A stretch of DNA of 31,018 nt, taken from positions 1-31,018 of the forward strand of contig JANXAA010000001.1 in NCBI GenBank assembly GCA_025061865.1, in the 5' to 3' direction. Each line of letters begins with the position of its first letter. Positions within the stretch are counted from its first letter, which is position 1. Shown in pieces: positions 1,382-26,900 of this stretch. The position numbers and the translations under genes are program-made. The DNA is from Acidobacteriota bacterium. Lineage in GTDB: Bacteria > Acidobacteriota > HRBIN11. The notes under the pieces were generated by a model. It saw only the letters and a program-made list of their open reading frames with translations, was not told the origin of the DNA and ran no database searches.

Positions 1382-3019
1382 TCACGTCGACTCCAACGGG
1401 ATCAGCCGGGGAAACCCCCGCCGGTCTTGGCCACGGGACTGACGGGGTTCGCCCGCGCCGTTCGACCGGTTGAAGGTCCATGCCCGCTCCCAGTCGGCCA
1501 AGACACTGATGACGGCGGCGCTCGCACCCCCCATCGTGGGACTCAGTCGGCCTGTCGAGATGAAGGGCCATTGACCCTGAAACCCCGGCGGCGGCAGGGT
1601 CTCGTAGACGGCCAGGCCGTCCCCGCCCAGGATCGCCCGCAGGGCCTCCGGGTCACTTCCCAGGCCGAGACCCGGCCCGATGAAGAAGTGAGCCAAGTTC
1701 CGGACGACCTCCTTGTCGGTGTCGGCAACCGACTGGGAAATTAGGAGAAACCCGACGCCGGCCTTGCGGAGTTCCCGGACGGCCCGCCGGACGATGTCCC
1801 CCAAGGGTCCCGGCTGAGTCTCCTGGGGGACGACCCAGTGGGCTTCGTCGATGACGACCAAGACGTTGGCCGGCTCCCCCCGGGCCCACGCCGCCAGGGC
1901 TTGCGCCCGCAGGGCCGCCAGGAGATGCGCCGCCAGAAGGACGTCCTCGGGTCGGGCCGGGTCTAGCCGCAGGGTCCAGAACTCGGACCGGGCTAACGAG
2001 GCCAGAAGATCCTGGACGACGATGCGGCCGGGTGTCTTCCGAAATAGCCGAGCGACCTCCTCGAAAGCCTGCCGAATGCCCCGCAGCGTTACGAGACCCG
2101 GCCGACAGAGGATGTCCTCAATTTCAGCCCGCCGGTCGGGGTCGGCATAAATGTGCCGTAAGGCCCGCCGGAGGGTCGTCACGAAGGCTTCCCAGGACTC
2201 GAGCGACGAGAGGCCTGCCCCCATCCCGGCTAAAGCCCGGACAGCCGCCTCTTCCTTTTCAGCCGTCTTGAACCCCAGGTCCCGCAAGACCCCTCGGAGA
2301 CGCAGGACGTCCAAGAGGAGTGTCGGGTCGTCGAACTGGAAATCCCGCAGGGTCAGCGTACGCCGATTCCACCCCAGGAAAGCGCCGATGCCCTCGAAGG
2401 GGTACCCCCGGATACGGTCGGCCGACCATTCGCCTTGGGGGTCCAAGACGAGGACGCCCCGCAAGCCCCGGACCATTAGGGCAAACACGAGAGCCGCCGA
2501 CAAGACGGTCTTGCCTGAACCCGACCGGCCGAAGACTCCGACATGGACGGCCTCGCCGAAGCCGCGGGCGTCAAACGGCCGGACCAGGACTGGCTCGGGC
2601 ACGCCGTCGTACTCGCCGAGGATCCACCAGCCGGCCCGACCCATCCGGGCCAGGGTCGCCCGGTCGGCCCGGTAAAAGAGCGTCCCCGACGGCAGGGGCT
2701 GGGGAAGCCGCTCGGGACGACCCCCCCGCAGGCAGTAGCAGTAGCGGACCTCCAGGGTGAAGATGTCTCGCCCCAGGGGCAGGCCGGCCCCGTCCTCGGC
2801 GGCCCGATGGGCAAGTTTCTCTTGGATGCCATACGCAAATAGGTAGGGATTCTCGCCGACGGCCGACACGACTCGAGCGAGGACCTCGACGTCAGCCCAT
2901 CGGGCATACAACATGGACCCCAGGGGCGGGAAGGTCGCCCCGGCGACGTGCTTGAGGATGGCCCCCGTGAAGGTCGAGCGGCCCCACAGGACGGCGACGG
3001 GCCTCGACGCACCCCTCAT
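1382..3019 (-). CDS. HerA/DUF87-like (FtsK-HerA superfamily) ATPase with putative N-terminal HAS-barrel region
   Basis: Walker A VGVFGRSGSGKT, VLVLDPQGEW strand, Walker B VLVVIDEAH, then VRELRKAGVGFLLISQS (RK-x-G...SQ signature). GGAG precedes the ATG. Confidence 0.85.
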   Translation of the reverse strand: MRGASRPVAVLWGRSTFTGAILKHVAGATFPPLGSMLYARWADVEVLARVVSAVGENPYLFAYGIQEKLAHRAAEDGAGLPLGRDIFTLEVRYCYCLRGGRPERLPQPLPSGTLFYRADRATLARMGRAGWWILGEYDGVPEPVLVRPFDARGFGEAVHVGVFGRSGSGKTVLSAALVFALMVRGLRGVLVLDPQGEWSADRIRGYPFEGIGAFLGWNRRTLTLRDFQFDDPTLLLDVLRLRGVLRDLGFKTAEKEEAAVRALAGMGAGLSSLESWEAFVTTLRRALRHIYADPDRRAEIEDILCRPGLVTLRGIRQAFEEVARLFRKTPGRIVVQDLLASLARSEFWTLRLDPARPEDVLLAAHLLAALRAQALAAWARGEPANVLVVIDEAHWVVPQETQPGPLGDIVRRAVRELRKAGVGFLLISQSVADTDKEVVRNLAHFFIGPGLGLGSDPEALRAILGGDGLAVYETLPPPGFQGQWPFISTGRLSPTMGGASAAVISVLADWERAWTFNRSNGAGEPRQSRGQDRRGFPRLIPLEST

Positions 3020-3047
3020 GACTGTTCTTCTCCCAATTTGCGACCTT

Positions 3048-3075
3048 ATTTTACTGAACTTTCTTACTATGTCAA
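3048..3075 (-). promoter_or_regulatory. near-consensus sigma70 promoter for the HerA-like gene
   Basis: Minus strand TTGACA-N16-TAAAAT in an AT-rich patch about 30 nt upstream of the ATG. Confidence 0.7.
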
Positions 3076-3149
3076 ATTGTAGGGGGGAGGCCCATTAAAA
3101 CCCACAACATCTTGATTTTGAACCCGCACGGGCGACGGACCCGGCGGGG

Positions 3150-3674
3150 CTATTTAGGGACAAGTTCCGCTTTTTCCCGGCCCAGGGCGGCGTATAGGCC
3201 GCCGACGACCGATACGCCGAGGAGGACAAGGCCCACAGCATACACCAGGTTCCCCAAGGCCTGGTCCCAGCTCAACAAACCAAGTCGGCCGAGGAGGTAG
3301 TTCCAGTCGTGGCCCTCACCTAACAGAGGTAGGACTTGCGCCCGGGCGTCTTTAATGTACACCGAGATGTTGAAGCAGTTTTGGGCAACCCAGAAGAGGA
3401 CAACGGCGGCTGAGTAGACTTGTCGGTGGACGTAGAAGTAGACCACGATGCTGACAGGGACGAGGACCTGCATGAGCGTTCCGCCCAGGACCCCGACGAA
3501 TTCGCCGAATACTCCAAAGATCACGTGTCCCGCCTCATGGAAGATGAGGTCAACGCCGTCGAGGAACCCAAAGTCAGTGGGGTCCTTGGCGCAGACGATA
3601 CCGTAAATCCCTACAAGGACGATTCCGGCCGTCCGCAGGATACGCCGGACGGCCCATGGATCCATTCCGATCAT
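3150..3674 (-). CDS. small polytopic membrane protein with HExxH motif (peptidase M50B/S2P-like), 174 aa
   Basis: ATG at 3674 follows GAGGAGG. Several hydrophobic segments; LIFHEAGHVIFG, GGTLMQ, YIKDARAQVLPLLG, GHDWNYLL. The track's extra 106 N-terminal aa are low-complexity and probably not translated. Confidence 0.75.
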   Translation of the reverse strand: MIGMDPWAVRRILRTAGIVLVGIYGIVCAKDPTDFGFLDGVDLIFHEAGHVIFGVFGEFVGVLGGTLMQVLVPVSIVVYFYVHRQVYSAAVVLFWVAQNCFNISVYIKDARAQVLPLLGEGHDWNYLLGRLGLLSWDQALGNLVYAVGLVLLGVSVVGGLYAALGREKAELVPK

Positions 3675-3730
3675 CGGGACCCTCCTCGGACCCTCTCCCA
3701 TGGGGAGAGAGTCTTGAGACGCCCTGGCTC

Positions 3731-3739
3731 TGGTACAAT
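3731..3739 (+). promoter_or_regulatory. extended -10 promoter facing the TPR-kinase gene
   Basis: TGGTACAAT (TGn-TACAAT), about 400 nt upstream of ATG 4141. Confidence 0.45.
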
Positions 3740-4140
3740 GAGGGGGAGTGCAGGCCTCGGGCCTGGGGCGCAGGTGTCTGGCCTGCGAGAAAGCCGATCT
3801 TACCAGCAGTAGACCCCATTCATAAAAACGCCGAAGATGCCGGGCCTCCGGTCCGGCGTCTTGGCAGGGCCGGGCGGGTCCGGTATGATTGGAAGCGTTG
3901 GGTGTTGGATGTCGGGTCGGAGGGGTGCCCGATAGGGAACACAGGGTATGCGGCGTCGGGGACGAGAGTGGGTTTAGGAGAAAAGAAGGCAAGGAGGTCG
4001 GAAAGCCAGGCTATTGGCAGGCAGGTAGGGTCTTCTGGACTCCTTCTCGGGCCGCCTTCTTGTCTGCTTGCCTTCTATTATTCTCCTGGCTCAGCCCCAA
4101 CCCTCCGACACCGAATATCGCATGTACCATCGGTAGGGTC

Positions 4141-7116
4141 ATGGCGTGGGGACTCTTCGGCAAGTCGGACCCCCGGAGTGAAGCCCGGCGAGCCCTCAAG
4201 GCCGGTGACTTCCGCACGGCCGGCGACCGCTTCCGCATGATCGGGGCCTACGATGAGGCCCTCCAGGCCTACACTCAAGGGAGCTTATTTGTCGAAGCGG
4301 CCATGTTATGCGAGGAGATCGGCCAGTGGGAACGGGCCGGCGACTTCTGGGCCCAAGCCCGGCGATACCGGGAAGCCGGAGAGGCCTATCTCAAGGCGGG
4401 ACTGCCCAATGAGGCCCGGCAGGCCTTCGAGAAGGCCCAAGACTACGGCCGTGCCAAGGAGCTGGCCCTGCGGTTGAACCAGTGGGACCGGGCCGGCGAG
4501 TACGCCGAGAAGATCCGTCAGTGGGGAGAAGCCGCTCAGTATTATTACCGGGCCGAGATGTTCGAGAAGGCGGCCCTCGTGGCTGAACGGGCCCTGGAAG
4601 TCTTGGAGGCCGAGCGCAAGGAACGGGAGTACTTGCCCGAATGGCAGCGCGAGTACCGGACCATCTGTCGGATCGCCGCCCAGGCCTACACCCGGACCCA
4701 GCAACTCCACCGGGCGGCCGAGTTGTACGAGGCCATGGGCGAGTTCAAGAAGGCCCGAGAGGCCTATCTTGCTTGCGGGAACGCCGTTAAGGCCCTTGAG
4801 ATGTCGGTCCGACTCGAGGACTACGTGACCGGCCGGTCTATCATCGAGCGCTACCCCGAAGCTCGAGTCGCCCTCCAGTTGTGCGGGCACGTCTACCTTC
4901 ACCTGGGCGAATTCGCCGAGGCGGCCAAGTATTACATGGCGGCTGGCCAGCCCCTCCTGGCCGCCCAGGCCTTCGACCAGATGGGTCGGTACGTCGACGC
5001 GGCCTTTCTTTATGAGCAGGCCGGCGAGTGGGAACAGGCCGGCGAGCTGTACGTCCGGGCCCAGGCCTGGGACCGGGCAGCGGCCATATACGCCAAGATG
5101 GGAAGTCCCCTCCAGGCGGCCGCCTATTACGAGAAGGCCGGCCGTTGGGAGTTAGCCGTCGAGCTATATGCTCAGGCCCAGCGATACACCGACGCCGGCC
5201 GGCTCCTGTATCAACTCGGTCGGACGGATGAGGCCATCGCCCTCCTCCAGAAGGTCGATCGACAAGACCCCACTTACGTTCAGGGCGTGGCCCTGCTGTG
5301 CCGTCTCTGGATCGAGAAAGGAATGGCCAGCCTCGCCCTTCGGCGGGTCGAGGAGCTAATCGCCGCCAAGGACCTCGACACCGATGGGGTCGAGCTGTAT
5401 TACCTCCAGGGTCGGGCCCTGGAAGCCCTGGGCCGCTTTCAGGAAGCCCTGGCCGTCTACGAATCGGTCGTCGCCCAGGACATGCACTACGCCGATACCC
5501 AGGAGCGGATCCAGCGTCTGACGACACCCTCGACCCCGACGGCGCCCGACGTCCAGACCCATGCACTCGACTTGCGGTGGGATGTCTTGGGCGTCCTCGT
5601 CTCAGCGCCGCACATGACCCTCTTGAAGGTCGTCGACAAACAGCGGAACTCGCCGGCCCTGGTCCAGCGAATTCAGGCCCCCGGCCTGGTCCTTTCCGAC
5701 GCGAAGGCCCGACTCCAGGGCCTGCGAGGTCTGCGGCATCGGTTATTGGCCCTCCCGTACGACGTGACCTCTGACGGGGACGCCCTGTTGGTCTGTGTCG
5801 ACTACGCCGAGGGCGTGAGCCTCCGAGAGTGGCTCCGGACGACCCGGTCAGTCGCTGAGGTCCAGGAGGTCACCCTGCAAATTGCCCAGGCCCTGGCCTT
5901 CTGCCACCGTTCCCAGGTCGTCTTCGGGGCCCTCTTGCCGGAGCATGTCCTGGTCGCCTCCGACCGGTCCGTCAAGCTGGTCCCCTGGGATGTCTACCTC
6001 TCGGCCCTACCTACCGAGATGCCCTACGCTTCGCCCGAGTACCGCACCCGCCAGTCCCTAAGCCCGGCCAGTGACGTTTACGCCTTCGGGGTCCTCCTGC
6101 ATGAACTCCTCTTCCATCGGCTCCCCACCTGGCCCCTGAGCCCCTTAGACTCGCCCGGGCAGCCCTCCGGCGCCTCGGGCACTGGAGTCCCGAGTTCCTT
6201 GGTCCGCATCGTGACGGCCTGCCTCCAGCCAGACCCGGCTCAGCGGGTCGCCTCGATGGACGGCGTCGTCGAGGCCCTGGCGACTATCGACATCTACGAG
6301 GGCGCCCTCATCGATGACCGTTATGAGATCTTGAAGGAGCTCGGTCGGGGTGGGATGGCCCGTGTGTACCTCGCTCACGATCGCGTCTTGGGCGAGAAGG
6401 TCGCCCTAAAGGTTTGGCACTCGGACCTGATGGCGATGGCGGCGACGTCCCATCGGCTCCTCCGAGAGGTTAAGCTCGCCCGATCCATCCTCCATCCGAA
6501 CGTCGTGCGGCTGTTCGAGCTGGGGACTTACCGGGGGGCTCGATACGTCACGATGGAGTATGTCCCCGGTGCCTCCTTAGACGCCATCGTCCGCCGGACG
6601 GGGCCCATCCCGCCCCGCCTGTGGTGGAAGCTGGCTGTCCAGATCGTCGAGGGCCTGAAAGCCGCCCATGACGTCGGCGTCATCCACCGGGACCTGAAGC
6701 CCCAAAACATCATGGTCACCCAGGACGGCCGGGTGAAAATCCTAGACTTTGGTATCGCTGGCGTCTTAGATAGTTCAGACCACACGCAAACCCAGAGCAT
6801 CATCGGATCTCCCAAATACATGGCTCCTGAACAGATCCAAGGCCAACGTCTGGACGTCCGGACGGACCTGTATGCCCTGGGGGCCATCTTCTACTTTATG
6901 CTGACCGGCCGAGAAGCCTTTTCGGCCGAGACGGTCCAGGCCATCCTGACCAAGCAGTTGACCGAAATGCCGCTGCCCCTCCAGCATTGGGTCCCGAATC
7001 TGCCGGGGTTCCTAAACGATTGGGTCCTGAAGCTCCTGGCTAAGCGGATGGAGGACCGGCCCCCGAACTGTACGGCCGTCCTCGAATTCCTGTACCGCAT
7101 TAAGGACAGCCTCTGA
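4141..7116 (+). CDS. cytoplasmic TPR-repeat protein with tandem pseudokinase and Hanks-type Ser/Thr kinase domains (991 aa)
   Basis: About 460 aa of A/Y-rich TPR-like repeats. First kinase fold is degenerate (FGALLPEH, KLVPW, ASPE). Second is intact: LGRGGMARVY, VALK, HRDLKPQN, DFG, YMAPE. Start re-assigned to ATG 4141 (MAWGLFGK). Confidence 0.88.
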   Translation: MAWGLFGKSDPRSEARRALKAGDFRTAGDRFRMIGAYDEALQAYTQGSLFVEAAMLCEEIGQWERAGDFWAQARRYREAGEAYLKAGLPNEARQAFEKAQDYGRAKELALRLNQWDRAGEYAEKIRQWGEAAQYYYRAEMFEKAALVAERALEVLEAERKEREYLPEWQREYRTICRIAAQAYTRTQQLHRAAELYEAMGEFKKAREAYLACGNAVKALEMSVRLEDYVTGRSIIERYPEARVALQLCGHVYLHLGEFAEAAKYYMAAGQPLLAAQAFDQMGRYVDAAFLYEQAGEWEQAGELYVRAQAWDRAAAIYAKMGSPLQAAAYYEKAGRWELAVELYAQAQRYTDAGRLLYQLGRTDEAIALLQKVDRQDPTYVQGVALLCRLWIEKGMASLALRRVEELIAAKDLDTDGVELYYLQGRALEALGRFQEALAVYESVVAQDMHYADTQERIQRLTTPSTPTAPDVQTHALDLRWDVLGVLVSAPHMTLLKVVDKQRNSPALVQRIQAPGLVLSDAKARLQGLRGLRHRLLALPYDVTSDGDALLVCVDYAEGVSLREWLRTTRSVAEVQEVTLQIAQALAFCHRSQVVFGALLPEHVLVASDRSVKLVPWDVYLSALPTEMPYASPEYRTRQSLSPASDVYAFGVLLHELLFHRLPTWPLSPLDSPGQPSGASGTGVPSSLVRIVTACLQPDPAQRVASMDGVVEALATIDIYEGALIDDRYEILKELGRGGMARVYLAHDRVLGEKVALKVWHSDLMAMAATSHRLLREVKLARSILHPNVVRLFELGTYRGARYVTMEYVPGASLDAIVRRTGPIPPRLWWKLAVQIVEGLKAAHDVGVIHRDLKPQNIMVTQDGRVKILDFGIAGVLDSSDHTQTQSIIGSPKYMAPEQIQGQRLDVRTDLYALGAIFYFMLTGREAFSAETVQAILTKQLTEMPLPLQHWVPNLPGFLNDWVLKLLAKRMEDRPPNCTAVLEFLYRIKDSL

Positions 7117-11322: not shown

Positions 11323-14061
11323 TTAAAATTCCTGGCCGATGGTTACGAACCAGTGGAAGCGCCTCTCTCCGGGGCGTCGGTCCAAGAGCCAAGCCAGGTC
11401 GACTCCCACGGGGCCGAAGGGGGCGATATATCGAAGGCCGAAGCCACCGGCTTTCCGGAAGTCAGACCACCGGAGGCTCGGATTCTCGAGGAATACGTTG
11501 CCAACGTCGAGGAACAGCACGAGGCCCCAGGACGGTCGCGGGTTGAACCGCTGTTCGACCGTCATCAGCCACAGGGCGTTGCCGCCCAGGGGCGGTCCCA
11601 GCGTGTTGAAGGCAAAGCCTCGGTGGGTACGGCTCCCGCCGGCAAAGAACCGCTGGCTCGGCGGGAGCAAGACGCGCTGGTCGGGCGGGAGCCGGGCGGG
11701 GGCTTCGAAACGGCGGCCCCAGCCAGCCCGTTGGGCGATAGCCAGGACCCAACCGGACGTCAGGGGAAGATAGACGTTCCACTGACCTGCCAGCTTCAGA
11801 AACGTCACGTCGGAACCCCAACTCCGCAGGCTGAACTCCCCGGTCACGCTCAGGAACTGGCCCTGGGTAGCGTTTAAGACCGAATCCCGGGTATCTCGGA
11901 GCCACCCAAGGGAGAGTTTCGTGAGTCGCAGGTTTTCAAACTCCCGGGCGATCAGCTCGATTTCCTCGGGGCTTAAGGTGGGAGCCAAATTCTCTAGACG
12001 GGTCTCACTGACCTCCCACTGGCCTGTCAGGAGAGACCGGGGCCCATACCGGTGGACCCCCTGAAGGAGGCCCCGGCTCTGGAAGAGGTCAAAGTTCGGT
12101 TGACGCTGGAAGCCTGTCTCGCCGGCGACCTGCCACTCGACGGGAAGGTCCCCCATGGAACGGCCCCCAAAGGAGCCCAGGACCCGCCAGTTGACGAAGC
12201 TGAAGCGGAACAGGGCATACAACCGGTACCCCCGACCCAGGAAATTGTTGTACTGCGCGTTCAGAATCCCCCGGATCCCGTCGTTTTCCTGATACCCCAG
12301 GCCATAGCTGAAACGGGTGGGCCGGGCCTCCCGAAGGATGACCAGCAGATTCTCCCGGTCGCCCATCTGTTGCGGAAGGGGCAGGGGAATCTCGACCCGT
12401 TCAAAGAGACCGAGGTCGTATAGGCGATTTTGAAAAGCTTCTAACTGGTCCGCCTGCAGGGGGGCCCCTTCTCGAAACGGTAGGAGACGATACAGGACGC
12501 CTGCCTGCGTGTGGTATAAGCCCCGGAAGATCACCCGGTCGACATACGTCGGCTCGCCCTCCAGGATGTAGAAGTCGACCCGCACGGTGTCGGGCTGGCC
12601 TGGGACAGACTCCACATGGGGCTCGACCTGGACCCGGAAGTAGCCGGCCTGGTAGTACTTCTGCCGGAGGACCTGGAGGCTCAAATCCAGCAGACGCCGC
12701 TCCAGGGCCTGACCTCGGCGCAAGGGGATGTAGGCCGCCAGTTCCTCATCGCTCCATACCGAGTTGCCCCAAAAGTCGACGTCTTGAACGTACCGCCGGG
12801 GGCCGATGTCACAGAGGATGCGAAGACGGGCGTTGCCCGGGTTTCCATACTCGGGAATGACTTGAAACTCGACGGGTTGATAGCCCCGCTCCTGAAGACT
12901 GACCTGAAAGCGGCGGAGCCACGTCTGGAACTGGTCGTAGACCCAGGGCGACCCAGGCCTCCAGAGTTGGACCTCTGAGTGGAGCTCCGCCGGCAGGCCC
13001 TCCCATTGGATCGAGGTGATACGGGCCATCGGGCCGGGTTCGACCCGAAACACGACGGCGACCGTCGTCGGCGTCTGTACCTGGACCGAACCCGTCACCT
13101 GCGCCTGCGGGTACGCGTGGGCCTGCAGGGTCCGCTGAAGCATGGCCCGCAGGACCTCCAGTAGGTCGTCGGACCAGGCCCGGGCGCTTCCGACCCAGTC
13201 GAGCCACTCCTGGACCCGTGGGACTCCCGGCGGCCAACCCACGACCTCGACCCGCACCCGGGGTCCGCACTGCCCGTCCAAGTGGACGACACCGTCCGAC
13301 CACGTGGCCTCCAAATAAGCCGTCCAGTACCCCTCCTGACGAACCCGTTGGACGACCCGTTGGACCGCCGACTGAAGGGCTGGGTTCCATCGTTCCGCCT
13401 TCCGGAGGACAGCCTCGACAGGGCCGCGTAGGGCCATACAAACGGGACCAGTCGACCAAGTCCAGCGCCGGACCCGTCGGGGCGTACCCTCGTCGACGTA
13501 AACCCGCAAGACACCGGTGCGGCGCTGGACATCGATTTCGTCAAAGTAGATGTCCACAGTCGGCGACTCAAACCCCGCCTCCTCATAGAAACGCCGAATG
13601 GCCTCTTTCCAGCGCTCGACCTGAGCCCGGTCGTAAGGGAGGTCCAGGGCAAAGTCCGTCATATGCTGTCGTAAGCGGCGAGGCGAAAAGGTCCGACTTG
13701 TGACGTAGAAGAAGCGCACATCTCCGATGCGGGCCGGGGCCACGCAGGTCATCGTCAGGTCCACGGCGGAAGGGCCTGCCCCCGCCCCGCCCGACTCTTG
13801 CGCCAGCCCCTCGACAGGCGACACCTGCGCCGAGACCTGCTCGCATAGACCGGTCAGGTACACGTTCTGAAGAGAGGCCGCCAGGGCTTCGTCCGTCAGG
13901 ACTTCCCCGGGACGGACGGCCAGCAGACGGTTGAAATCGTATGTCGTCCGAGGCCCCTCAAAGGTCCACCGCACTTGGCGGACGACCTGAGCGGCGACCC
14001 CGCCGGTTGCTACGACCCAGACGGCGACTCCCAGTCCTAACAGTCGGCCGCGTCGCCCCAC
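11323..14061 (-). CDS. Omp85 family (BamA/TamA-like) outer membrane protein with multiple POTRA domains (912 aa)
   Basis: GTG 14061 follows AAGGAG; signal-peptide-like GRRGRLLGLGVAVWVVATGGVAA; POTRA-like repeats (VQDVDFWGN, YYQAGY, VDRVIFRG...LYDLGLF); barrel with RFFAGGSRTHRGF, FLDVGNV, GFGLRYIAPFGPVGVDLA, terminal F. Confidence 0.88.
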   Translation of the reverse strand: MGRRGRLLGLGVAVWVVATGGVAAQVVRQVRWTFEGPRTTYDFNRLLAVRPGEVLTDEALAASLQNVYLTGLCEQVSAQVSPVEGLAQESGGAGAGPSAVDLTMTCVAPARIGDVRFFYVTSRTFSPRRLRQHMTDFALDLPYDRAQVERWKEAIRRFYEEAGFESPTVDIYFDEIDVQRRTGVLRVYVDEGTPRRVRRWTWSTGPVCMALRGPVEAVLRKAERWNPALQSAVQRVVQRVRQEGYWTAYLEATWSDGVVHLDGQCGPRVRVEVVGWPPGVPRVQEWLDWVGSARAWSDDLLEVLRAMLQRTLQAHAYPQAQVTGSVQVQTPTTVAVVFRVEPGPMARITSIQWEGLPAELHSEVQLWRPGSPWVYDQFQTWLRRFQVSLQERGYQPVEFQVIPEYGNPGNARLRILCDIGPRRYVQDVDFWGNSVWSDEELAAYIPLRRGQALERRLLDLSLQVLRQKYYQAGYFRVQVEPHVESVPGQPDTVRVDFYILEGEPTYVDRVIFRGLYHTQAGVLYRLLPFREGAPLQADQLEAFQNRLYDLGLFERVEIPLPLPQQMGDRENLLVILREARPTRFSYGLGYQENDGIRGILNAQYNNFLGRGYRLYALFRFSFVNWRVLGSFGGRSMGDLPVEWQVAGETGFQRQPNFDLFQSRGLLQGVHRYGPRSLLTGQWEVSETRLENLAPTLSPEEIELIAREFENLRLTKLSLGWLRDTRDSVLNATQGQFLSVTGEFSLRSWGSDVTFLKLAGQWNVYLPLTSGWVLAIAQRAGWGRRFEAPARLPPDQRVLLPPSQRFFAGGSRTHRGFAFNTLGPPLGGNALWLMTVEQRFNPRPSWGLVLFLDVGNVFLENPSLRWSDFRKAGGFGLRYIAPFGPVGVDLAWLLDRRPGERRFHWFVTIGQEF

Positions 14062-14322
14062 TCGATAGCTCCTTGAGGGAAAGGTCCCGGAGCCCAGGGA
14101 AGCCGGGGCTCGGGACCGGGTGTTTCGACGGTAATGAACCTGGATATGATATTTCGGCGGGCAGACCGCTATAATGCTCCGTCCTGGCAACGGTTCTTTC
14201 GGAACTCGGCCCGACGGTGGCCAAATCTTCACTCCTGCAAAACCGTCCGGAAAAGTCGAACGGACCCGGATTTTCACGGACCTAACGGCGCTGCTAAGAT
14301 CCGGGGACCTATACTTTTTCGC

Positions 14323-17313: not shown

Positions 17314-18030
17314 ATGAAGCTGAGTCGTGCCTTTTTCCGGTTTTGGGTCCAGGAGGACCGGCTCGACGTGGCGACCGATATCGACGGATGGCGTCGATGG
17401 ATCCGCAAGTACACCATCTTAGAGGCCGCTCGGCGGGTCTTAAATCGTCATGGATTGGAGGGCTTGACGGTCGACGCCATCGCTCGGGAGGCCGGTATCA
17501 CGAAGGCGACGGTCTATGCGTATTTTACGAGCCGGGACGAACTCCTCTTCGAGACGGTGCGCTATGTCATGAAGCGATTCCGCTACGGCTGGCTCCGAGC
17601 CGTCCGGCGGGGCCGGTCGACGCGGCAGAAGCTCTTGCGGGCCTTCCGCTATTACCTGCACCATGTGGAAGCCAATCGGTCGGTCTTTGAGGTCCTGTAC
17701 CGGGGCTTACTTTTTACGACGGAGGCCTCCCGGTCGGCCTGCAAGGCCATGATCCATGAGGAACTCAATCATTACCATAGTCACTTGAAGGAACTCATCC
17801 AGCAGGGTATCACCGAGGGTTGGATCCGACCAGTCGTCCCCGACGAGGCGGCCTTCTTTGTCTTACATCTCCTGCATGGGGCCATCATGCGACGGATTTA
17901 TGTCGGGGCCGACCTGTCCGTCCGGGACCACGCCCGCACGCTCTTGAGCTTCTGCCTCCGAGGCTTGATGAATCCATCCGTTCGTCCAGCCCCTGGCCCT
18001 CGAGCGTCAGTCCGGGAGGAACGGCGATGA
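17314..18030 (+). CDS. TetR/AcrR family transcriptional regulator
   Basis: HTH ILEAARRVLNRHGLEGLTVDAIAREAGITKATVYAYFTSRDELL; GGAGGAG upstream. Confidence 0.93.
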   Translation: MKLSRAFFRFWVQEDRLDVATDIDGWRRWIRKYTILEAARRVLNRHGLEGLTVDAIAREAGITKATVYAYFTSRDELLFETVRYVMKRFRYGWLRAVRRGRSTRQKLLRAFRYYLHHVEANRSVFEVLYRGLLFTTEASRSACKAMIHEELNHYHSHLKELIQQGITEGWIRPVVPDEAAFFVLHLLHGAIMRRIYVGADLSVRDHARTLLSFCLRGLMNPSVRPAPGPRASVREERR

Positions 18031-19253
18031 CCGGATTTTGCATTCCGAAGGGTGGATTGCGAAGGGCAGATTGGAACTTTCAAAGGGGGGCATCTCTAAA
18101 GCCCTCCTTTGTTATCCCGGATTTCATCACCGTCCTCCTGGTCATTGGGGGCTTCAGCCTATCGGGAGCCGGCAGCCTTTGGGGGTGTAGCCGGGCCGAG
18201 CGGTCGGCCCGGGCGACGGATACGGCCCCGGCGGTGCCCGTCGTCGTCGCCCCTGTCGAGTCCAAGACCGTCGCTGTGGAGTACCCGTCTGTCGGGACCG
18301 TCGAGGCCTATGCGACGGTCGTTGTCCGTTCGATGGTCGCCGGTGAGCTCCAGGCAGTCCACTTCCGGGAGGGCGATTACGTGCGGCAGGGGGACCTTCT
18401 GTTTACCATCGACCCCGAGCCTTATCGGACGGCCTTGGCTCAGGCCGAAGCGAAGCTGAATCAGGACCGGGTCTTAGCTCAGAATGCCGAGCGGGAGGAG
18501 GCTCGCTATGCGGACCTGCTCCGCCAAGGGATCGTGACGCAGGAGCAGTACGACCGCATCCGGTCTAACGCCGAGGCCTTGCGGGCGGCTGTCCAGGCCG
18601 ATGAGGCGGCTGTAGCCAATGCCCGCCTCCAGCTCGAGTACTGCTTCATCCGGTCGCCTATCACCGGTCGGGCGGGTGCCCTCTTAGTCCATGCGGGAAA
18701 CCTCATTAAGGCCAATGAACGAGACCTGGTCGTGATCCATCAGGTCGAGCCGATCTATGTGACCTTTACTGTGCCCCAGCAGTACTTGCCGGACATCCAG
18801 GTGCAGAGCGGTCGGAATCCCATGCCCGTCGTCGTGACCTTGCCAGGGCATCCCGAAGAGCGCTTCGAAGGTCGCCTGGCCTTTATCGACAACGCCGTCG
18901 ACCCGACGACGGGGACGATCCGGCTGAAGGCCCGGTTGGAGAATTCGACCCGGGGGCTCTGGCCGGGTCAGCTCGTCAACGTCGCCCTGACGCTGAGGGT
19001 CCTTCGGGATGCCGTCGTCGTCCCGGCCCAGGCCGTGCAGGCAGGCCAGGTCGGGACATACGTGTACGTCGTCCGGTCGGACCGGACGGCGGAGCTCCGG
19101 TCGATCGACGTCGCCCATCGTCTGGAGCAGGAGGTCGTCGTCGCTCGAGGGCTTCGACCTGGTGAGCAGGTCGTCATCGACGGTCAGGTCCGTTTGACGG
19201 ACGGAGTGAAGGTGCAGGTGCAAAACCTTGACCCGGAGCCGGTAGGCAGATAG
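18027..19253 (+). CDS. RND efflux periplasmic adaptor (membrane fusion protein) 1
   Basis: ATGA overlap with the TetR stop; LWGC lipobox-like segment; VHFREGDYVRQGDLLFTIDP, IRSPITGRAG, FIDNAVDPTTGTIRLKA, LWPGQLV. Confidence 0.92.
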   Translation: MTGFCIPKGGLRRADWNFQRGASLKPSFVIPDFITVLLVIGGFSLSGAGSLWGCSRAERSARATDTAPAVPVVVAPVESKTVAVEYPSVGTVEAYATVVVRSMVAGELQAVHFREGDYVRQGDLLFTIDPEPYRTALAQAEAKLNQDRVLAQNAEREEARYADLLRQGIVTQEQYDRIRSNAEALRAAVQADEAAVANARLQLEYCFIRSPITGRAGALLVHAGNLIKANERDLVVIHQVEPIYVTFTVPQQYLPDIQVQSGRNPMPVVVTLPGHPEERFEGRLAFIDNAVDPTTGTIRLKARLENSTRGLWPGQLVNVALTLRVLRDAVVVPAQAVQAGQVGTYVYVVRSDRTAELRSIDVAHRLEQEVVVARGLRPGEQVVIDGQVRLTDGVKVQVQNLDPEPVGR

Positions 19254-19321
19254 GCCCGTGGAGAGAAAGAGCGCAGATATCCTCGTCTGCGGCAACGCAG
19301 GCCTCCGGGTTTACGAGAATA

Positions 19322-19402
19322 CAGGCGTCTCGCCTGGGGGAGCGGGGAGAGGCCCCCGCTTTAGCGAGCGGGGCTTGCATCTCAGGCGTTCCGCCTGGGG
19401 GA
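19322..19402. repeat. two 20-nt hairpin-forming direct repeats with a structured 41-nt spacer
   Basis: CAGGCG-tct-CGCCTG-GGGGA (19322-19341) and CAGGCG-ttc-CGCCTG-GGGGA (19383-19402). Confidence 0.7.
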
Positions 19403-19430
19403 CGTAACCTCCGGCCTAGGGAGGTAGGTC

Positions 19431-22400
19431 ATGAACTTATCGGCGCCCTTCATTCGGCGCCCCGTCATGACGACGCTCGTGATGGCGAGCGCCCTCATCT
19501 TCGGGGCAATGGCTTTCCGGCTCCTACCGGTCAGCCACCTGCCGAACGTAGACTTTCCGACGATCTCGGTCTCGGCCAGCCTGCCGGGGGCGAGTCCCGA
19601 GACGATGGCCTCAGCCGTGGCGACGCCCCTGGAGCGTCAGTTCTCGACGATCGCCGGTCTCGAGTCGATGACCTCGACGAGCGGACAGGGCGTCACGCAA
19701 ATCACGCTCCAATTTTCTCTAGACCGGGACATCGACGCCGCCGCCCAGGACGTTCAGGCGGCCATCGCCAAGACGATGCCCCGCCTGCCTCGGGACATGC
19801 CGGCGCCGCCGTCCTACCAGAAGGTGAACCCGGCCGACCAGCCGGTCCTGTATATCGCTTTGACGTCGCCGAGCTTGCCGATGTCGGTCCTCCACGAGTA
19901 TGGCGAGACCCTGATGGCCCAGCGTATCTCGATGGTCAGCGGCGTTGCCCAAGTCCTCGTCTATGGGGCCCAGAAGTATGCCGTGCGCATCCAACTCGAC
20001 CCGAACGCCTTGGCGGCTCGGGGGCTGGGCATCGACGAGGTCGCCCAGGCCGTCCGGCAAGCTAACGTGAATCTCCCGACGGGCGTCCTGTACGGTCCCT
20101 TTCAGGCCTTCACGGTTCAGGCTACAGGCCAACTGACGTCGGCATCGGCCTATCGGCCCATCGTCGTGGCTTACCGGAACGGGGCCCCCGTGCGGTTAAG
20201 CGAGCTCGGACGAGTCGTCGACAGCGTCGAAAACGATAAGACGGCCGCTTGGTTCTATACTTCGGACTCAGCCGAGCGGGCTATCATCTTAGCCGTTCAG
20301 CGTCAGCCAGGGGCCAACACCGTCGAGGTCGTCCGTCAGGTCCGGGCGCTCTTGCCCACGTTCCGTGAGCAACTGCCGGCGTCTGTGGCCCTCCGCATCT
20401 TGTACGACCGCTCGGTCTCGATTCAAGAGTCCGTCCGGGACGTCGAATTCACCCTAGTCCTAACCCTCTTTCTGGTCGTCTTGGTCATCTTTTTGTTTTT
20501 GCGGAATTTACGGGCGACGGCCATTCCCAGCTTGGCCATCCCGATGTCGATCGTCGGGACGTTCATGTTCATGTACCTTCTGGGGTACAGCCTGGACAAC
20601 CTATCCCTGATGGCCCTGACGCTCTCCATCGGGTTCGTCGTCGACGACGCCATCGTCATGCTGGAGAACATCGTGCGCCACATGGAACAGGGCAAGAGCG
20701 CCTGGGTGGCCGCCTTGAAAGGTGCTGAGGAGATCGGCTTCACGATCGTGTCGATGACGCTGTCCTTGGCCGCCGTCTTCATCCCGGTCTTGTTCATGGG
20801 CGGTATCGTCGGGCGGCTGTTCCGGGAGTTTGCCGTCACGATCGGGGTCGCCATCTTATTGTCGGGAGTCGTGTCCCTGTCGTTGACGCCGATGCTATGT
20901 AGCCGGTTCCTGCGGCGGCCGGCTGCGCACGGTCGGTTGTATCAAGCATCCGAGCGGGCTTTTGAGGCCTTGCGGGCTTGGTATGGCCGGTCCCTCGAGG
21001 GGGTCCTTCGTCATCGACGGGCCGTAATGGCCTTCCTGGGGGCGACTCTGATCGCCACAGTCTATCTGTTCTGGGTCATCCCCAAAGGGTTCCTCCCAAC
21101 AGAGGACGCCGGCCAAGTCGTGGTCTTCACGGAAGCCCCCGAGGGGACGGCCTTCGAGTCGATGGTCCAGCGCCAGAGGGTCGTCGCCGACATCGTCCGG
21201 TCCAATCCATATGTAGAAGCCTTCATGTCCAGCGTCGGGGCCCGGGGGAGTTTGACGGGCCCGAATCAGGGCACGCTGTTTATCAGCCTGAAGCCTCGGG
21301 ACCAGCGGCCAGACATCGAGACAGTCGCCGCCGAACTCCGTCGCCAATTGGCCGACGTCCCGGGTCTGCGAGCCTACGTCCAAGTGCCGCCGTCCATTCG
21401 GGTCGGAGGTCGACTGACGAAGAGCCTGTATCAGTACACCCTGCAGGCGCCCAACCCTGAGGAACTTTACCAGTATGCTCCGATTCTGGCCGAACGGATC
21501 GAACGTCTGCCCGGCTTTCTGGACGTCACGACAGACATGCAGATGGCTAATCCGCAGGTGTACGTCGACATCGACCGGGACCGGGCGGCCCGCTTGGGCG
21601 TGACCCCCTTCCAGATCGAGGACGCCCTGTACACGGCCTACGGACCCCGGGAAGTCACGACGATTTATGCCCCAAACAACCAGTACGCAGTCTTGATGGA
21701 GCTTCTGCCCGAGTCCCAAAAGGTCCCGTCCCAGTTGAATCTGCTGCATATCCGCTCCGATCAGGGCCCCCTGGTCCCCCTGAGTGCCGTCGCCCATCTG
21801 CGGACGGACGTCGGCCCCCTGACGGTCAACCATACGGGCCAGCTCCCGTCGGTCACGATTTCCTTCAACTTGGCCCCGGGCTACGCATTGGGAGACGCCG
21901 TAAACGCCATCGAACGGGTCGCCCGCGAGGTCCTGCCCGCGACCGTCGTGACAAGCTTCCAGGGGATGGCCCAGGCGTTCCAGGCGTCCCTGGCGGGATT
22001 GGGCCTGCTACTCCTTACGACCGTCTTGGTCATTTACATCGTCCTGGGCATCTTATACGAGAACTTCATTCACCCCATCACGATCCTCACGGCCCTGCCC
22101 TTTGCCGGTGTCGGGGCCCTGGTGACCCTGCTCCTATTTGGGAAAGAGCTGTCCATCTATGCCTTTGTCGGGATCATCCTGCTGGTCGGCCTCGTTAAGA
22201 AGAACGGTATCATCATGGTCGACTTTGCCATTGAGGCCCGGCGGGCCGGGAAGTCCCCCGAGGAAGCCATCGTCGAGGCTTGTCGGATTCGCTTCCGGCC
22301 CATCATGATGACGACGATGGCGGCCCTGATGGGTGCCCTGCCCATCGCCCTCGGGATCGGTGCCGGTGCCGAGGCCCGCCAGCCCTTAGGCCTGGCCGTC

Positions 22401-22595
22401 GTCGGGGGCCTCCTGTTTTCGCAGACGTTGACCTTGTATGTCACGCCCGTCTTTTACGTCTACATGGAGGCCTTCCAGGCGTGGCTGGCCCGACGGATGC
22501 GGGCACCTCGACCGGCCCTGGAACCGACGCCGTCGCCCGTTTGGCCCCTGGCTAACGGTCAGCCAGAGGAGGGGGCTCAGGAGGTCGGGCGATAG
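19431..22595 (+). CDS. RND efflux permease 1 (AcrB/MdtB-C-like)
   Basis: [47 protein letters not shown]; proton-relay residues intact. Confidence 0.96.
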
Positions 22596-22639
22596 GTGCA
22601 AGGGAGATTCGACGACAACTGGCCTTTGGAGGAGGACTT

Positions 22640-23728
22640 ATGCGGCGTTGGTACTACGTCATCGGCGCCTTTCTGAGCTCGGTCGCCTTGGTCAGCGGCG
22701 TCAGATTTGTCGCCCAGTCGGCCCGGTCGCCGGCTCCGAAAGCGTCATCGTCGGCACCGGCCGGTCCGACGGCTCGGCCGACCGTCAACGTGACCGTCGT
22801 GTCTGCCCGGTTGCAGGCCTGGCCTCGCATCGTCGAGGCTGTCGGGACGGTCGCCGCCTGGGAACAAACGGAGGTCGCCGCCCAGGTCGACGGTCCTGTG
22901 ACGGAAGTCCGCAAGGACGTCGGGGACGCCGTCCGGGCCGGCGAGGTCCTCGCTAAGATCGACGAACGGGAGTATGAACTCCGCTACCGGCAGGCGGAGG
23001 CGGATGCAGAGCAGGCCGTCCGGGACCTCGAACGGGCCGAGCAGATGGCCCGGCAGGGGCTCGTCCCACCCCAACAACTCGAGACGGCCCGGGTCCGGGC
23101 TCAAGTCGCCCGAGCGAACGCCGACATGGCCCGCAAGAAGTATGAGGACACGTCGGTCCGGGCGCCCTACGCCGGAGAGGTCATCCAGCGGCTCGTGTCG
23201 CCGGGCGAATACGTACGTACGGGGCAGCCCCTGTTTGTACTCGTGGACGCCCGTCGCCTCCGGCTGAAGCTCCCGGTGCCCGAGATGGACTATGCCCGGA
23301 TTCAGCCAGGTCAGGTCGTCGAAGTTCGACTCGATGCCCTGCCCGACCGGACCGTCACGGGTCGGGTCTACCGGGTCACGCCGGCCGTCGACCCGTCCAG
23401 CCGTACGGTCCTCGTCGAGGTCCTGATCGAAAACCCCGACGGCCAAGTCCGGCCCGGGATGTTTGCCCGCGCCCGGCTGAAACTGGGGACAGAGGCCCCG
23501 ATGGTGACACTGCCGGCGTCCGCCCTCCAAGCCGTCCCCGGGGGTGTCCAGAAGGTCTACGTCGTCGAGGGCGATACAGTCCGGGAGCGGCGCGTCGAGG
23601 TCGCCTTTTACGTCGAGGGCCAGGTCGTCCTGCGTTCGGGCGTCCGGCCCGGCGAGCGGGTCGTCGCCCCGATCCCGCCGACGATCTGGGACGGCATGGC
23701 CGTGCGGGAGGTAGACAATCAGAAGTAA
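22640..23728 (+). CDS. RND efflux periplasmic adaptor 2
   Basis: N-terminal TM anchor, EVAAQVDG, DVGDAVRAGEVLAKID, VRAPYAG, VDPSSRT, VRPGMF; GGAGGAGG upstream. Confidence 0.92.
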   Translation: MRRWYYVIGAFLSSVALVSGVRFVAQSARSPAPKASSSAPAGPTARPTVNVTVVSARLQAWPRIVEAVGTVAAWEQTEVAAQVDGPVTEVRKDVGDAVRAGEVLAKIDEREYELRYRQAEADAEQAVRDLERAEQMARQGLVPPQQLETARVRAQVARANADMARKKYEDTSVRAPYAGEVIQRLVSPGEYVRTGQPLFVLVDARRLRLKLPVPEMDYARIQPGQVVEVRLDALPDRTVTGRVYRVTPAVDPSSRTVLVEVLIENPDGQVRPGMFARARLKLGTEAPMVTLPASALQAVPGGVQKVYVVEGDTVRERRVEVAFYVEGQVVLRSGVRPGERVVAPIPPTIWDGMAVREVDNQK

Positions 23729-23928
23729 AGATTGGCCCTATCCGTCGGTGCTTCGGTGAAGGTGTGACACGACAGTTCACATCTCGAGCGAAAGCCCGGC
23801 TGGACAGACATCGCTATAACGCTAGGGTGAGCTGAAGATTTTTACCCCGTCACTCCCAGTCGTGTCTCCTTACCTGTCCATCCGCACACTTGCCTACCCA
23901 CTCAGGGGTAGTCATCGGAGGTTCCGCC

Positions 23929-26900
23929 ATGACATCCTCGAACGCTTCGGACCGGGAACGCCGAGGCGTGGCGCTATTCGTATACCGCCCCGTCTTGGCG
24001 ACGATGATCGTCGCCTTCCTGGTTACATTGGGATGGGTCTCGTTTCGAGGGTTGCCCATCGACCTCTTTCCTAACGTCGAGTTCCCCGTCGTGACGGTCA
24101 TCACAGCCCTGCCGGGGGCCAGCCCTGAGGAAATAGAGTCGACCGTCACGAAGCCTCTTGAAGAAGCCATTAACACAGCCAGCGGCATCGAGGAGCTCCG
24201 ATCCTATAGCCAAGAGGGTCTCTCGACCATCGTCGTGTCTTTTGTCTTAGAGAAGGACCCCCTCGAGGCCGTTCAAGACGTCCGAGATAAGGTCAATAGC
24301 GTGTTGTCTCAACTTCCGACAGGGACGAAGCCCCCCATCATTTCAAGGTTGGACTTCGGGGCCGTACCCATTCTTTACATCGTCGTATCGTCCCCTCGGG
24401 ACCTCCGGGAGACGACCGAGATCGCCCGCAAGCTCCTGAAGGAACCCCTGGAAACGGTTTCGGGCGTCGGGTCTATCGTCCTCTTCGGGGGTCGGGAACG
24501 GGTCCTTCAGGTCGACCTCATCGTCGACCGGCTCCGGGCCTTCGACCTGCCCGTCGTGGCCGTCTGGAATGCCATCCAGGCCCAAAATCTCGAGTACCCC
24601 GGCGGGCGCCTTACGACCGAGGACCAGGAGACGGGCGTCCGCTTGCAGGCCCGGGTCCGCAGTGCCGAGGACCTGGCGAATCTGGCCATCGCTGAACGGA
24701 ACGGCGCCATCCTCCGCCTGAAGGACGTCGCCGTCGTCCGGGACGGCTTCAAGGAGCCGCGTCAGCTCAGCCGACTTTGGATCCGGGGTCGGGGCGACAT
24801 TCCCGAGGAAAGCGTCACGCTGGTCGTCTTCAAGCAGGCCCGGACCAATACCGTGCAGGTCATCGAGGCCGTCAAGGCGCGTCTGACGGAGATCCGCCAG
24901 ACCCTGCCGCCGGATATCCAGACCCATATCTTGAGCGACCAGTCTCGCTTTATCCGGGAATCGATCCGGGAGCTTCAGATTCACCTGATCCTGGGGGCTG
25001 TCTTAGCCAGCCTGGTCGTCTTCGTGTTCCTGCGGAACTGGCAGGCCACGTTAATCAGTGCCCTAGCCATCCCGACGAGTCTGATCGCGACATTCATCTT
25101 CATGGGAGCTTTTGGATACTCATTAAATACGATGACCTTGCTGGGCCTGACGGTCGCCGTCGGGATCGTCATCGATGACGCCATCGTCGTCATCGAGAAC
25201 ATCTTCCGACACATGGAGGAATACGGCGTCTCGGCCTTCCAGGCGGCCATCCGGGGGTTCCGGGAAATTGCCCTGGCCGTGACGGCGACGACCTTTTCGT
25301 TGGTCATCATCTTCCTGCCCATCGCCTTCCTAAAGGGTCGGGCGGGCCTGTTCCTCCGACAGTTCGGATGGACCAGTGCCGTGGCCATCTTGTTTTCACT
25401 TTTGATCGCCTATGTCCTGACGCCGATGCTGGCCTCCCGACTCCTCCGACCCCAGAAGGTCCGCTCGAAGGGGACCGGGTTCTACCGATGGATCGAGGCG
25501 GGCTACGTGGGAATCCTCCGGTGGTCGCTCCGGCATCGGTGGGTCGTCGTCCTCATAGCGGCCCTGTGCGTCTTGAGCACGGGCTTCATCGCTCGTTGGA
25601 TGGGGAAAGAGTTCATCGCCAGTGACGATACAGGGGAATTTGCTGTGTCCCTCGAGGCACCGCCCGGGTCCGCCTTAGAGACGACCGACCGCCTCTTGCT
25701 CCGAATCTTCGAACGGATTCGGAACATCCCCGAAATCCAGGCGATGGTCCTGCGCGTCGGTGACATCACGGCGGGAAGCGAAGCTGTCTATCAGGGCAAC
25801 ATTTACGTTCAACTGGTAGACTATCGGACACGCCGGCGGAGTCAATTCGATATCATGCGAGAGATCCGCGAAGTCCTAGGGCAGTTCCCCGAGCTTCGGG
25901 CCCAGGTCACCGAAGCGACCCTCATCGGCGGTGCCGCAACCGGGGGTTGGCAATTTCCTGTGAATGTCGTCCTGACAGGACCTGACCTCGATGTCTTAGA
26001 GAGCTTGGCCCGTCATGTCATGGATCGCATGCGAGCGACACCGGGTTTTGCGAGTGTAGACTCGTCGATCCCAGCCCGGCTTCCCGAATTCCAGGTCCGG
26101 GTCCTCTACGACCGGGCTCAGACCCTGGGCGTACGGGCTCAGGACGTGGCCCTGACCCTTCGACTTCTGCTAGGTGGAGACGAGGTCTCCAGCTTCCGAG
26201 AGGGCGTCGACCGCTACGGCATCTGGCTTCGGCTCCGGCCTGAGGACCGTCAGCGCTTAGACGACGTCTTGACGCTTCCCGTCCCGTCCCTCCGGGGTGC
26301 GAACGTGGAACTTCGCAACGTGGCTCAGGTCGAATACGGCGTCGCTCCGGCGGCGATCCAGCACTGGAACCGGTCGCGGGTCGTCAACGTCCTGGCGACG
26401 TTAGACGGCCTCGACCTGGGGCGGGCCCTGGACGTCGTCCGGCAGGCTTTCGCCGAGGTCCGTCCCTCGCCAGCCTACGAGCTCCACGTGTTGGGACGGG
26501 GCAAGATCATGGCCGAGACCTTCGCCAACTTTTTGACGGCCTTTGGCCTGGCCTTTGTCTTCATGTATATCATCCTGGCCGCTCAGTTCGAGCACTTCCT
26601 CCATCCCGTGACGATCCTCCTGTCGATTCCCCTGACCCTGCCGTTTGCCCTCCTGTCGCTGTGGCTGTGGGGTGAGAACTTAGGCCTATACGGCCTCATG
26701 GGGACGTTCCTCTTGGCCGGCGTCGTCAAGAAGAATGGCATCCTGCAGGTCGACTACACGAACCGCCTACGGTCGCAAGGCCTCAGTCGGTGGGATGCCC
26801 TGATTGAGGCGAACCGCACCCGGCTCCGACCGATCCTAATGACGACCTTCACGCTGGTGATGGGCATGGTGCCGATTGCCTTAGGGCAGGGACCCGGAGC

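Follow-up and report, generated by a model that had tools for sequence, protein, structure and literature searches.

The tandem kinases that a literature search brought up come from plants and animals, and no bacterial fusion of a pseudokinase to a kinase appeared in the accessible parts of those sources. In the animal Janus kinases (JAKs), such as TYK2 and JAK1, a pseudokinase precedes an active kinase. Plant tandem kinase proteins such as WTK1/Yr15 and Sr62, as described in the accessible text, also carry two kinase folds on one chain, one of them often dead, with Yr15 showing the reverse order, kinase then pseudokinase. Here we characterize a gene of an Acidobacteriota bacterium that encodes the order of the JAKs behind an N-terminal helical-repeat arm. 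The gene lies on the forward strand at 4141..7116 of a 31,018-nucleotide stretch (GenBank assembly GCA_025061865.1, contig JANXAA010000001.1, positions 1 to 31,018), hereafter the window. A first-pass annotation, made from the letters alone, had described a soluble sensor of tetratricopeptide repeats (TPR) fused to a pseudokinase-kinase tandem, had linked it to anti-phage systems, and had proposed a domain search, structure prediction and a census of the layout. Our analysis points instead, with a probability of about 0.6, to a stand-alone cytoplasmic signalling kinase outside phage defence, in which a dead first kinase domain (K1) is the fixed, non-catalytic partner of the second (K2) and the arm binds protein. 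The mechanism that we favour draws on conservation, spacing and structural models.

Among bacterial kinases, PknB, Stk1 and PrkC share with K2 the Hanks motifs and the TQT activation loop, and PknB and Stk1 are also the best structural matches of K1. The window protein differs from them in having no predicted membrane helix or PASTA domain and in placing its accessory domains N-terminal to the kinase. It falls outside the PASTA kinase family (NF033483, PknB_PASTA_kin): its score of 348 bits lies under the cut-off of 450, and only profile positions 2-265 of 563 are covered. Bacterial pseudokinases have been catalogued in seven families, ActPs1-3, GLW, CP1, DYD and DLHK (10.1101/2025.01.12.632604, PMC12599244). 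In the available portions of that kinase atlas and pseudokinase review, ActPs1, ActPs2 and GLW resemble K1 in keeping a kinase fold while lacking the VAIK Lys, HRD Asp and DFG Asp. The same portions describe membrane association for GLW and ActPs3 and a link to COG3899 for CP1, and report TPRs solely C-terminal to the kinase. Unlike K1, none of the seven families is described there as preceding an active kinase or as following an N-terminal arm of repeats, and neither source uses the word "tandem". The layout, put forward earlier as novel, is widespread in its phylum and was not found in the portions of these catalogues that were available; a prior description elsewhere is possible.

The open frame spans 3889..7116 (+) and gives 991 amino acids when started at the ATG at 4141. 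We accept this start because both same-genus orthologs align from the identical methionine of MAWGLFGK, which agrees with the coordinates first assigned to the gene. The gene and its parts are listed with the evidence for each.

4141..7116, forward strand: whole gene (solenoid, pseudokinase, kinase), 991 amino acids plus stop; open reading frame list, translation
4141..5550, forward strand: alpha-solenoid, residues 1-470; Pfam TPR, Clathrin and IFT-TPR matches, period-13 autocorrelation
5509..5574, forward strand: Pro/Thr-rich linker from solenoid to pseudokinase, residues ~457-478; indels in the ortholog alignment
5575..6282, forward strand: pseudokinase K1, residues ~479-714; Pfam, motif tables, AlphaFold2, Foldseek, ratio of nonsynonymous to synonymous substitution rates (dN/dS)
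6244..6321, forward strand: fixed-length junction from Arg702 of K1 to Arg727 in the RY pair that opens K2, with invariant Gly721; alignment
6301..7095, forward strand: Hanks-type Ser/Thr kinase K2, residues 721-985; Pfam, motifs, superposition on PknB

K2 is probably the enzyme, because every catalytic motif and a PknB-like TQT loop are present. Scanned alone, residues 714-991 matched Pkinase at E 1.1e-53 over profile positions 1-253 of 263. The domain carries all features of a Hanks-type Ser/Thr kinase from the Gly-rich loop through APE: GRGGMARV, VALK, the alpha-C Glu (REV), HRDLKPQN, DFG, the TQT loop and APE. Key residues are Lys757, Glu776, Asp851 (HRD), Asn856 and Asp869 (DFG), and the activation segment comprises residues 869-897 with TQT around Thr882. 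Modelled K2 superposes on Mycobacterium tuberculosis PknB (1o6y) with a target-normalized TM-score (TMt) of 0.91, a root-mean-square deviation (rmsd) of 1.7 Å and 34% identity. The second kinase is intact, as had been proposed.

K1 presents the opposite picture while remaining recognizable as a kinase. Residues 461-730 alone matched Pkinase at E 3.1e-16 (60.0 bits, cut-off 31.7; profile positions 50-254 of 263), and the only other Pfam match was the related PK_Tyr_Ser-Thr. Motifs were read from ortholog alignments and from a kinase profile built from 113 family kinase domains. By both, K1 has no Gly-rich loop, carries Gln509 (ALVQR) at the beta3 Lys position, has VFGALLPEH at the site of HRDLKPxN (F595-G596-A597 at the HRD position) and has LVPWD (L613-V-P-W-D617) at the site of ILDFG. 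It retains SPE of the APE motif (Glu633), the alpha-F Asp645 (SDVYAFG) and the alpha-H/I Arg702. The losses, and the retention of SPE and SDVYAFG, are those that the first-pass annotation had listed. A pseudokinase is usually defined as a kinase fold missing at least one of the VAIK Lys, HRD Asp and DFG Asp, and window K1 fits the sequence side of this definition with all three missing. Because the beta3 Lys, HRD Asp and DFG Asp are absent, K1 of the window protein is predicted to be unable to transfer phosphate. An AlphaFold2 model from a 10-sequence alignment had a mean predicted local distance difference test score (pLDDT) of 86.2 and a predicted TM-score (pTM) of 0.86. Its best Foldseek matches in the PDB were Staphylococcus aureus PknB/Stk1 and M. 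tuberculosis PknB (E ~1e-15, query-normalized TM-score (TMq) 0.72-0.80). Structure prediction, as had been proposed for this domain, therefore returned a confidently modelled kinase.

The two kinase folds are joined at a constant distance. The alpha-H/I Arg of K1 and the Arg of the RY pair lie 25 residues apart in 34/34 aligned members, with no indel, and most of these 34 are 31-37% identical to the window protein across the two domains. An AlphaFold2 model of K1-K2 built from the 34 sequences had pLDDT 85.4 and pTM 0.74, and the 10-residue blocks of the junction had mean pLDDT values of 79 and 89. On the other side of K1, the linker to the arm differs in length among orthologs. Taken together, these observations suggest that K1 and K2 make up a single two-domain unit of fixed geometry, to which the arm is flexibly tethered. 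A complex prediction with K1 and K2 as separate chains, run without controls, scored 0.00 against a mark of 0.32 and was given no weight in either direction. Within the genus (G000, G001, G002), dN/dS was 0.11-0.18 for K1, 0.04-0.05 for K2 and 0.06-0.09 for the arm; the K1 values indicate purifying selection.

The N-terminal arm, scanned alone as residues 1-480, matched solely helical-repeat families in Pfam (25 of the 27 families were listed, all of them repeat families). Autocorrelation of residues 1-470 peaked at lags 13, 26, 39, 52 and 65, with no peak at 34. An AxxxYxxxGxxxx motif runs in 13-residue register from about residue 15 to 365 and is irregular at about 145-250. TPR domains are defined by tandem 34-residue helix-turn-helix repeats. 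TPR_2 and related models exceed their Pfam cut-offs, and the top canonical TPR_2 match covers residues 418-447 (nucleotides 5392-5481). Judged by its repeat pattern, the arm is TPR-like but not canonical TPR; the earlier label thus holds for the helical repeats and the Pfam TPR matches but not for most of the arm, where the period is 13 rather than 34 residues. Sequence matches of the arm in the PDB were weak, comprising designed TPRs and IFT-A TPR regions (best E 1.8e-09).

Across the whole protein, Pfam found Pkinase in two stretches (E 1.6e-69) together with TPR families; neither PASTA nor FHA was among the families listed. The 19-residue Kyte-Doolittle mean peaks at 1.31, and a membrane helix usually calls for about 1.6, so that no membrane helix is predicted. 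Collectively, the domain search proposed in the first-pass annotation recovered a solenoid, a degenerate kinase fold and an intact kinase in the order then given. The hydropathy profile and the Pfam families listed are in keeping with the soluble protein lacking membrane, PASTA and FHA segments that it described.

To place the protein in a family, we searched 401 sampled Acidobacteriota genomes with the arm alone, counting matches at E <= 1e-20. An arm homologue occurred in 70/401 genomes and 52/227 genera, the 70 including the unpublished G153. By kinase profile, 37 reading frames in 36 genomes, the window frame included, combine the arm with two kinase-like domains. With the G001 ortholog, which is 93% identical over its full length, the layout is present in at least 37/401 genomes, and the census proposed at the outset thus shows it to be widespread in the phylum. 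The Acidobacteriota family is spread over many family labels. Its defining features, a 13-residue-repeat arm, a K1-clan domain and an intact kinase 25 residues past the K1 Arg, are all found in the window protein. Another 12 frames in 11 Acidobacteriota genomes pair the arm with one kinase, and frame L052 is truncated at a contig end, following its degenerate domain.

The 37 two-kinase frames reveal a graded series in K1. K2 retains the beta3 Lys, alpha-C Glu, HRD Asp, Asn and DFG Asp in 37/37 frames (L046 is cut after DFG). K1 retains the HRD Asp in 5/37, the DFG Asp in 16/37 and the beta3 Lys in 6/37. All three K1 residues are kept in only four frames (L044-L047), which have GxGxxA, VAxKR, HRDLRPEN and DFG, and thus K1 is a pseudokinase by the usual definition in 33/37. 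An intermediate group (L023, L025-L028, L031, L043) has HRN and Arg in place of the beta3 Lys with DFG intact, and degeneracy is greatest in the genus of the window. Because K1 keeps all its catalytic residues in a few lineages, the family probably began as a double kinase. The four members with intact K1 recall RSK and MSK, the double kinases of animals. RSK and MSK, like the plant tandem kinase proteins, are eukaryotic and of independent origin, acting as relay kinases or immune receptors.

In a FastTree phylogeny of 115 kinase domains, a branch with support 0.94 separated every K1 domain, together with the cut L052 domain, from K2, the single kinases and 26 domains drawn from other multi-kinase proteins. 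This topology would fit a single origin of K1, although that origin and the order of motif loss are provisional because the tree is a quick one, K1 branches are long and there is no true outgroup. The tree does not place K1 as sister to K2 and thus lends no support to K1 having arisen by a recent duplication of K2 within the gene.

Beyond the sampled genomes, a protein-collection search scored 8000 candidates; 2804 proteins reached E <= 0.001, and 120 of these were listed. Three-part BLAST dissection of 119 listed relatives gave 87 with the arm and one kinase, 8 with the arm and two kinase-like domains, 23 with no arm but two or three kinase-like domains, and 1 with none of these. The nearest genomes were Acidobacteriota (90% and 47% identity), and more distant relatives with the arm and a single kinase came from metagenome-assembled genomes, one labelled 'Nitrospirae' and two Myxococcota. 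Solenoid-plus-single-kinase proteins of Myxococcota, Thermoanaerobaculia and other Acidobacteriota share the arm (23-35% identity over ~440 residues) and a K2-like kinase, but lack K1, so that the kinase directly follows the arm. A K1-profile search of 1.84 billion representatives provides no clean census because scores sum over domains and multi-kinase proteins dominate: 150/150 listed proteins had 2-10 kinase-like stretches. About ten representatives among the matches listed share the family length and the position of K1.

Several individual loci depart from the common form. The four frames with intact K1 have an unusual HRDLRPEN catalytic loop and are also longer (G121, G193, G173 and G303; 1130-1234 residues), which points to an extra N-terminal region. 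L049 (G067:C18, open reading frame 3865-6999 on the reverse strand, at least 1045 residues) matches arm residues 178-469; its single kinase-like domain is terminal and degenerate (VHGSVRPSN, LADLGLG) and is not followed by an active kinase, giving an arm and a pseudokinase only. At L062 (G007:C4:2102400-2106500) an ortholog is split within K1 into frames of 582 and 466 residues, the break being due to a frameshift or to an error in sequencing. In G005 the two-kinase gene is present as two paralogs, each on its own contig (L017, L022), and in G076 (L073) a second family gene directly adjoins the first.

How K1 acts can be framed as follows. K2 would be a live Hanks-type Ser/Thr kinase that phosphorylates cellular proteins in the course of ordinary regulation. 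K1 would serve as its non-catalytic partner, either setting the active conformation of K2 allosterically or holding a substrate or regulator, and would have lost catalysis step by step while its structural role was kept. The solenoid would be a protein-binding arm that recruits partners or clusters the kinase. A more specific proposal, which we offer tentatively, makes K1 the obligatory intramolecular activator or clamp of K2 within the stepwise live-to-dead series, a convergent counterpart of the JAK switch; K1 might, for example, act as an internal equivalent of the N-lobe dimer by which PknB is switched on. If so, natural intermediates are available for experiment.

The resemblance to JAKs was examined at the level of structure. 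By E-value (1.9e-24), TYK2 (4oli) was the top Foldseek match of the two-domain model; in the comparison with the JAK family (TYK2, JAK1 7t6f) the pseudokinase and the kinase align in the same order, over 551 columns. JAKs carry FERM and SH2 domains ahead of JH2-JH1, and their JH1 is a tyrosine kinase. The two-domain fit to TYK2 is poor, however (TMq 0.43, rmsd 23.1 Å), both domains of the window protein are PknB-like and by Pfam it has no FERM or SH2 domain, which places it outside the JAK family. Its junction is also short and of fixed length. The "JAK-like order" of the first-pass annotation is thus apt for the succession of domains but not for their modelled packing. Because both domains are PknB-like Ser/Thr types, the tandem appears to have arisen independently of JAKs.

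Other roles for K1 were weighed against that of a fixed non-catalytic partner. K1 might mainly be a docking or phospho-acceptor platform, with K2 phosphorylating K1 or the linker and FHA-type proteins being recruited, as for MviN. The C-lobe core of K1 (APE Glu, alpha-F Asp, alpha-H/I Arg) is invariant or nearly so in the alignments, an FHA-domain gene lies directly upstream of the single-kinase relative L011, and MviN of M. tuberculosis is a pseudokinase precedent in the available portion of the review (PMC12599244). We nevertheless consider this role unlikely, as no FHA or phosphatase gene is conserved beside the two-kinase family and pure docking would have no need of an invariant junction length. 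That K1 is the decaying remnant of a duplicated kinase, with no function of its own, is very improbable. It is the fastest-evolving part of the protein and its catalytic motif loss differs in degree among lineages, as decay would predict, but its dN/dS indicates purifying selection, it is retained in 37 frames across many families with a confidently modelled kinase fold, and the 25-residue junction is free of indels in all 34 members aligned.

The remaining alternative, a soluble anti-phage or stress sensor in which a ligand on the repeat arm frees the kinase from JAK-like pseudokinase autoinhibition, appears improbable. Its domain order is that of JAK JH2-JH1, with TYK2 the leading structural match, although the modelled packing differs. 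PADLOC models for PD-T4-6 (E 1e-99) and mad6 (E 4.6e-88) match the kinase, and a HerA/mad8-like ATPase (E 1.9e-17) is encoded divergently upstream. The PADLOC matches are, however, confined to K2. The PD-T4-6 model reaches at least 237 bits at 8 places in the genome including K2, five of which outscore K2, and fires in 11/14 control genomes, Bacillus subtilis and archaea among them; a PD-T4-6 kinase is defined by a specific model match together with demonstrated phage protection, and so generic a match lends no support to membership. NCBIfam MAD6 scores 235.3 bits against a cut-off of 460 and PglW 89.6 bits against 990. Accordingly, assignment to Mad6 of MADS was rejected, the weak mad8-like ATPase being a neighbour within the genus only and no methyltransferase, which MADS requires, occurring among the neighbours of the gene; BREX PglW was rejected with no BREX genes among the neighbours. 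Similarity to PD-T4-6, Mad6 and PglW thus extends to a generic kinase domain, with no system partners conserved. The layout occurs in at least 37/401 genomes of the phylum amid changing housekeeping neighbours, and the G+C content of the gene is that of its flanks (~0.63-0.66 along the gene, 0.59 in the upstream bin 3001-4000, window range 0.59-0.69). With generic PADLOC matches and NCBIfam scores below cut-off, we found no specific evidence for defence, and the anti-phage link drawn in the first-pass annotation is unsupported, given also the housekeeping neighbours, the missing shared partner and the wide spread in the phylum.

Certain observations weigh against a stand-alone signalling kinase with K1 as fixed partner, or soften the case for it. 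K1 evolves at two to five times the rate of K2, and its constraint is therefore weaker. The relative placement of K1 and K2 comes from one AlphaFold2 model whose pTM is only moderate, and the limits of the tree given above bear on the history of K1. The 40 census loci were picked by open-frame length from 80 listed places (the census also took in loci gathered earlier, and the remaining places are mostly frames of 650-920 residues). PD-T4-6-type defence kinases and Stk2 are single genes, and judged from sequence alone the protein may be a single-gene defence kinase.

To our knowledge, bacterial pseudokinases are almost unstudied experimentally. The main value of this family is that its first kinase grades naturally from live to dead, which in a soluble protein provides a simple system for asking how a kinase fold becomes a regulator. 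It also allows one to ask whether bacteria use intramolecular pseudokinase control as animal JAKs do, and what is bound by the arm with its little-known 13-residue repeats. The defence matches carry a further lesson, that generic kinase hits in defence-system libraries are not to be read as defence.

Genomic context changes across the family. In the window, a short unknown open reading frame and the HerA/DUF87-like ATPase lie divergently upstream; a 4HBT thioesterase, a DUF502 protein and CoaX follow downstream on the same strand, and then PurH, BamA and glycerate kinase. This gene order is common only to two same-genus loci, and distant orthologs sit among different housekeeping genes. The commonest neighbour family occurs in 6/29 loci; with no family-wide neighbour among the 29 and synteny within the genus only, a conserved operon partner was rejected. 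Some sub-lineages do have recurring neighbours: in 4 loci a HEAT-repeat protein and UbiD are encoded upstream, and in 5-6 loci genes for a PIN-PhoH protein and an NtrY-like histidine kinase lie downstream. In loci labelled f21 and f64 (L020, L076, L077, L079, L080, L081), the downstream order is PIN-PhoH, a small open reading frame, the NtrY-like histidine kinase and a ~450-residue protein, a synteny present in 4-6 loci.

Other genes of the window merit brief description. The HerA/DUF87-like ATPase (1382-3019, reverse strand, 545 residues) matches Pfam DUF87 at E 5.2e-07 in addition to PADLOC mad8, and scores 40.5 bits with NCBIfam CedD, far under the cut-off. The open reading frame preceding it (3150-3992, reverse strand) has no family match, and only its last ~167 residues are conserved in the genus; the two could form a small effector-plus-HerA pair, common only within the genus. 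At 11323-14277 (reverse strand) lies a very long BamA/Omp85 of 984 residues, with ~490 N-terminal residues that had no Pfam match in the scan, POTRA at about residues 496-574 and the barrel at 776-984. Finally, 17314-27087 (forward strand) encodes a TetR regulator followed by two pairs of a membrane-fusion protein and an AcrB-type RND transporter (ACR_tran 1039 and 855 bits), and looks like a duplicated efflux operon.

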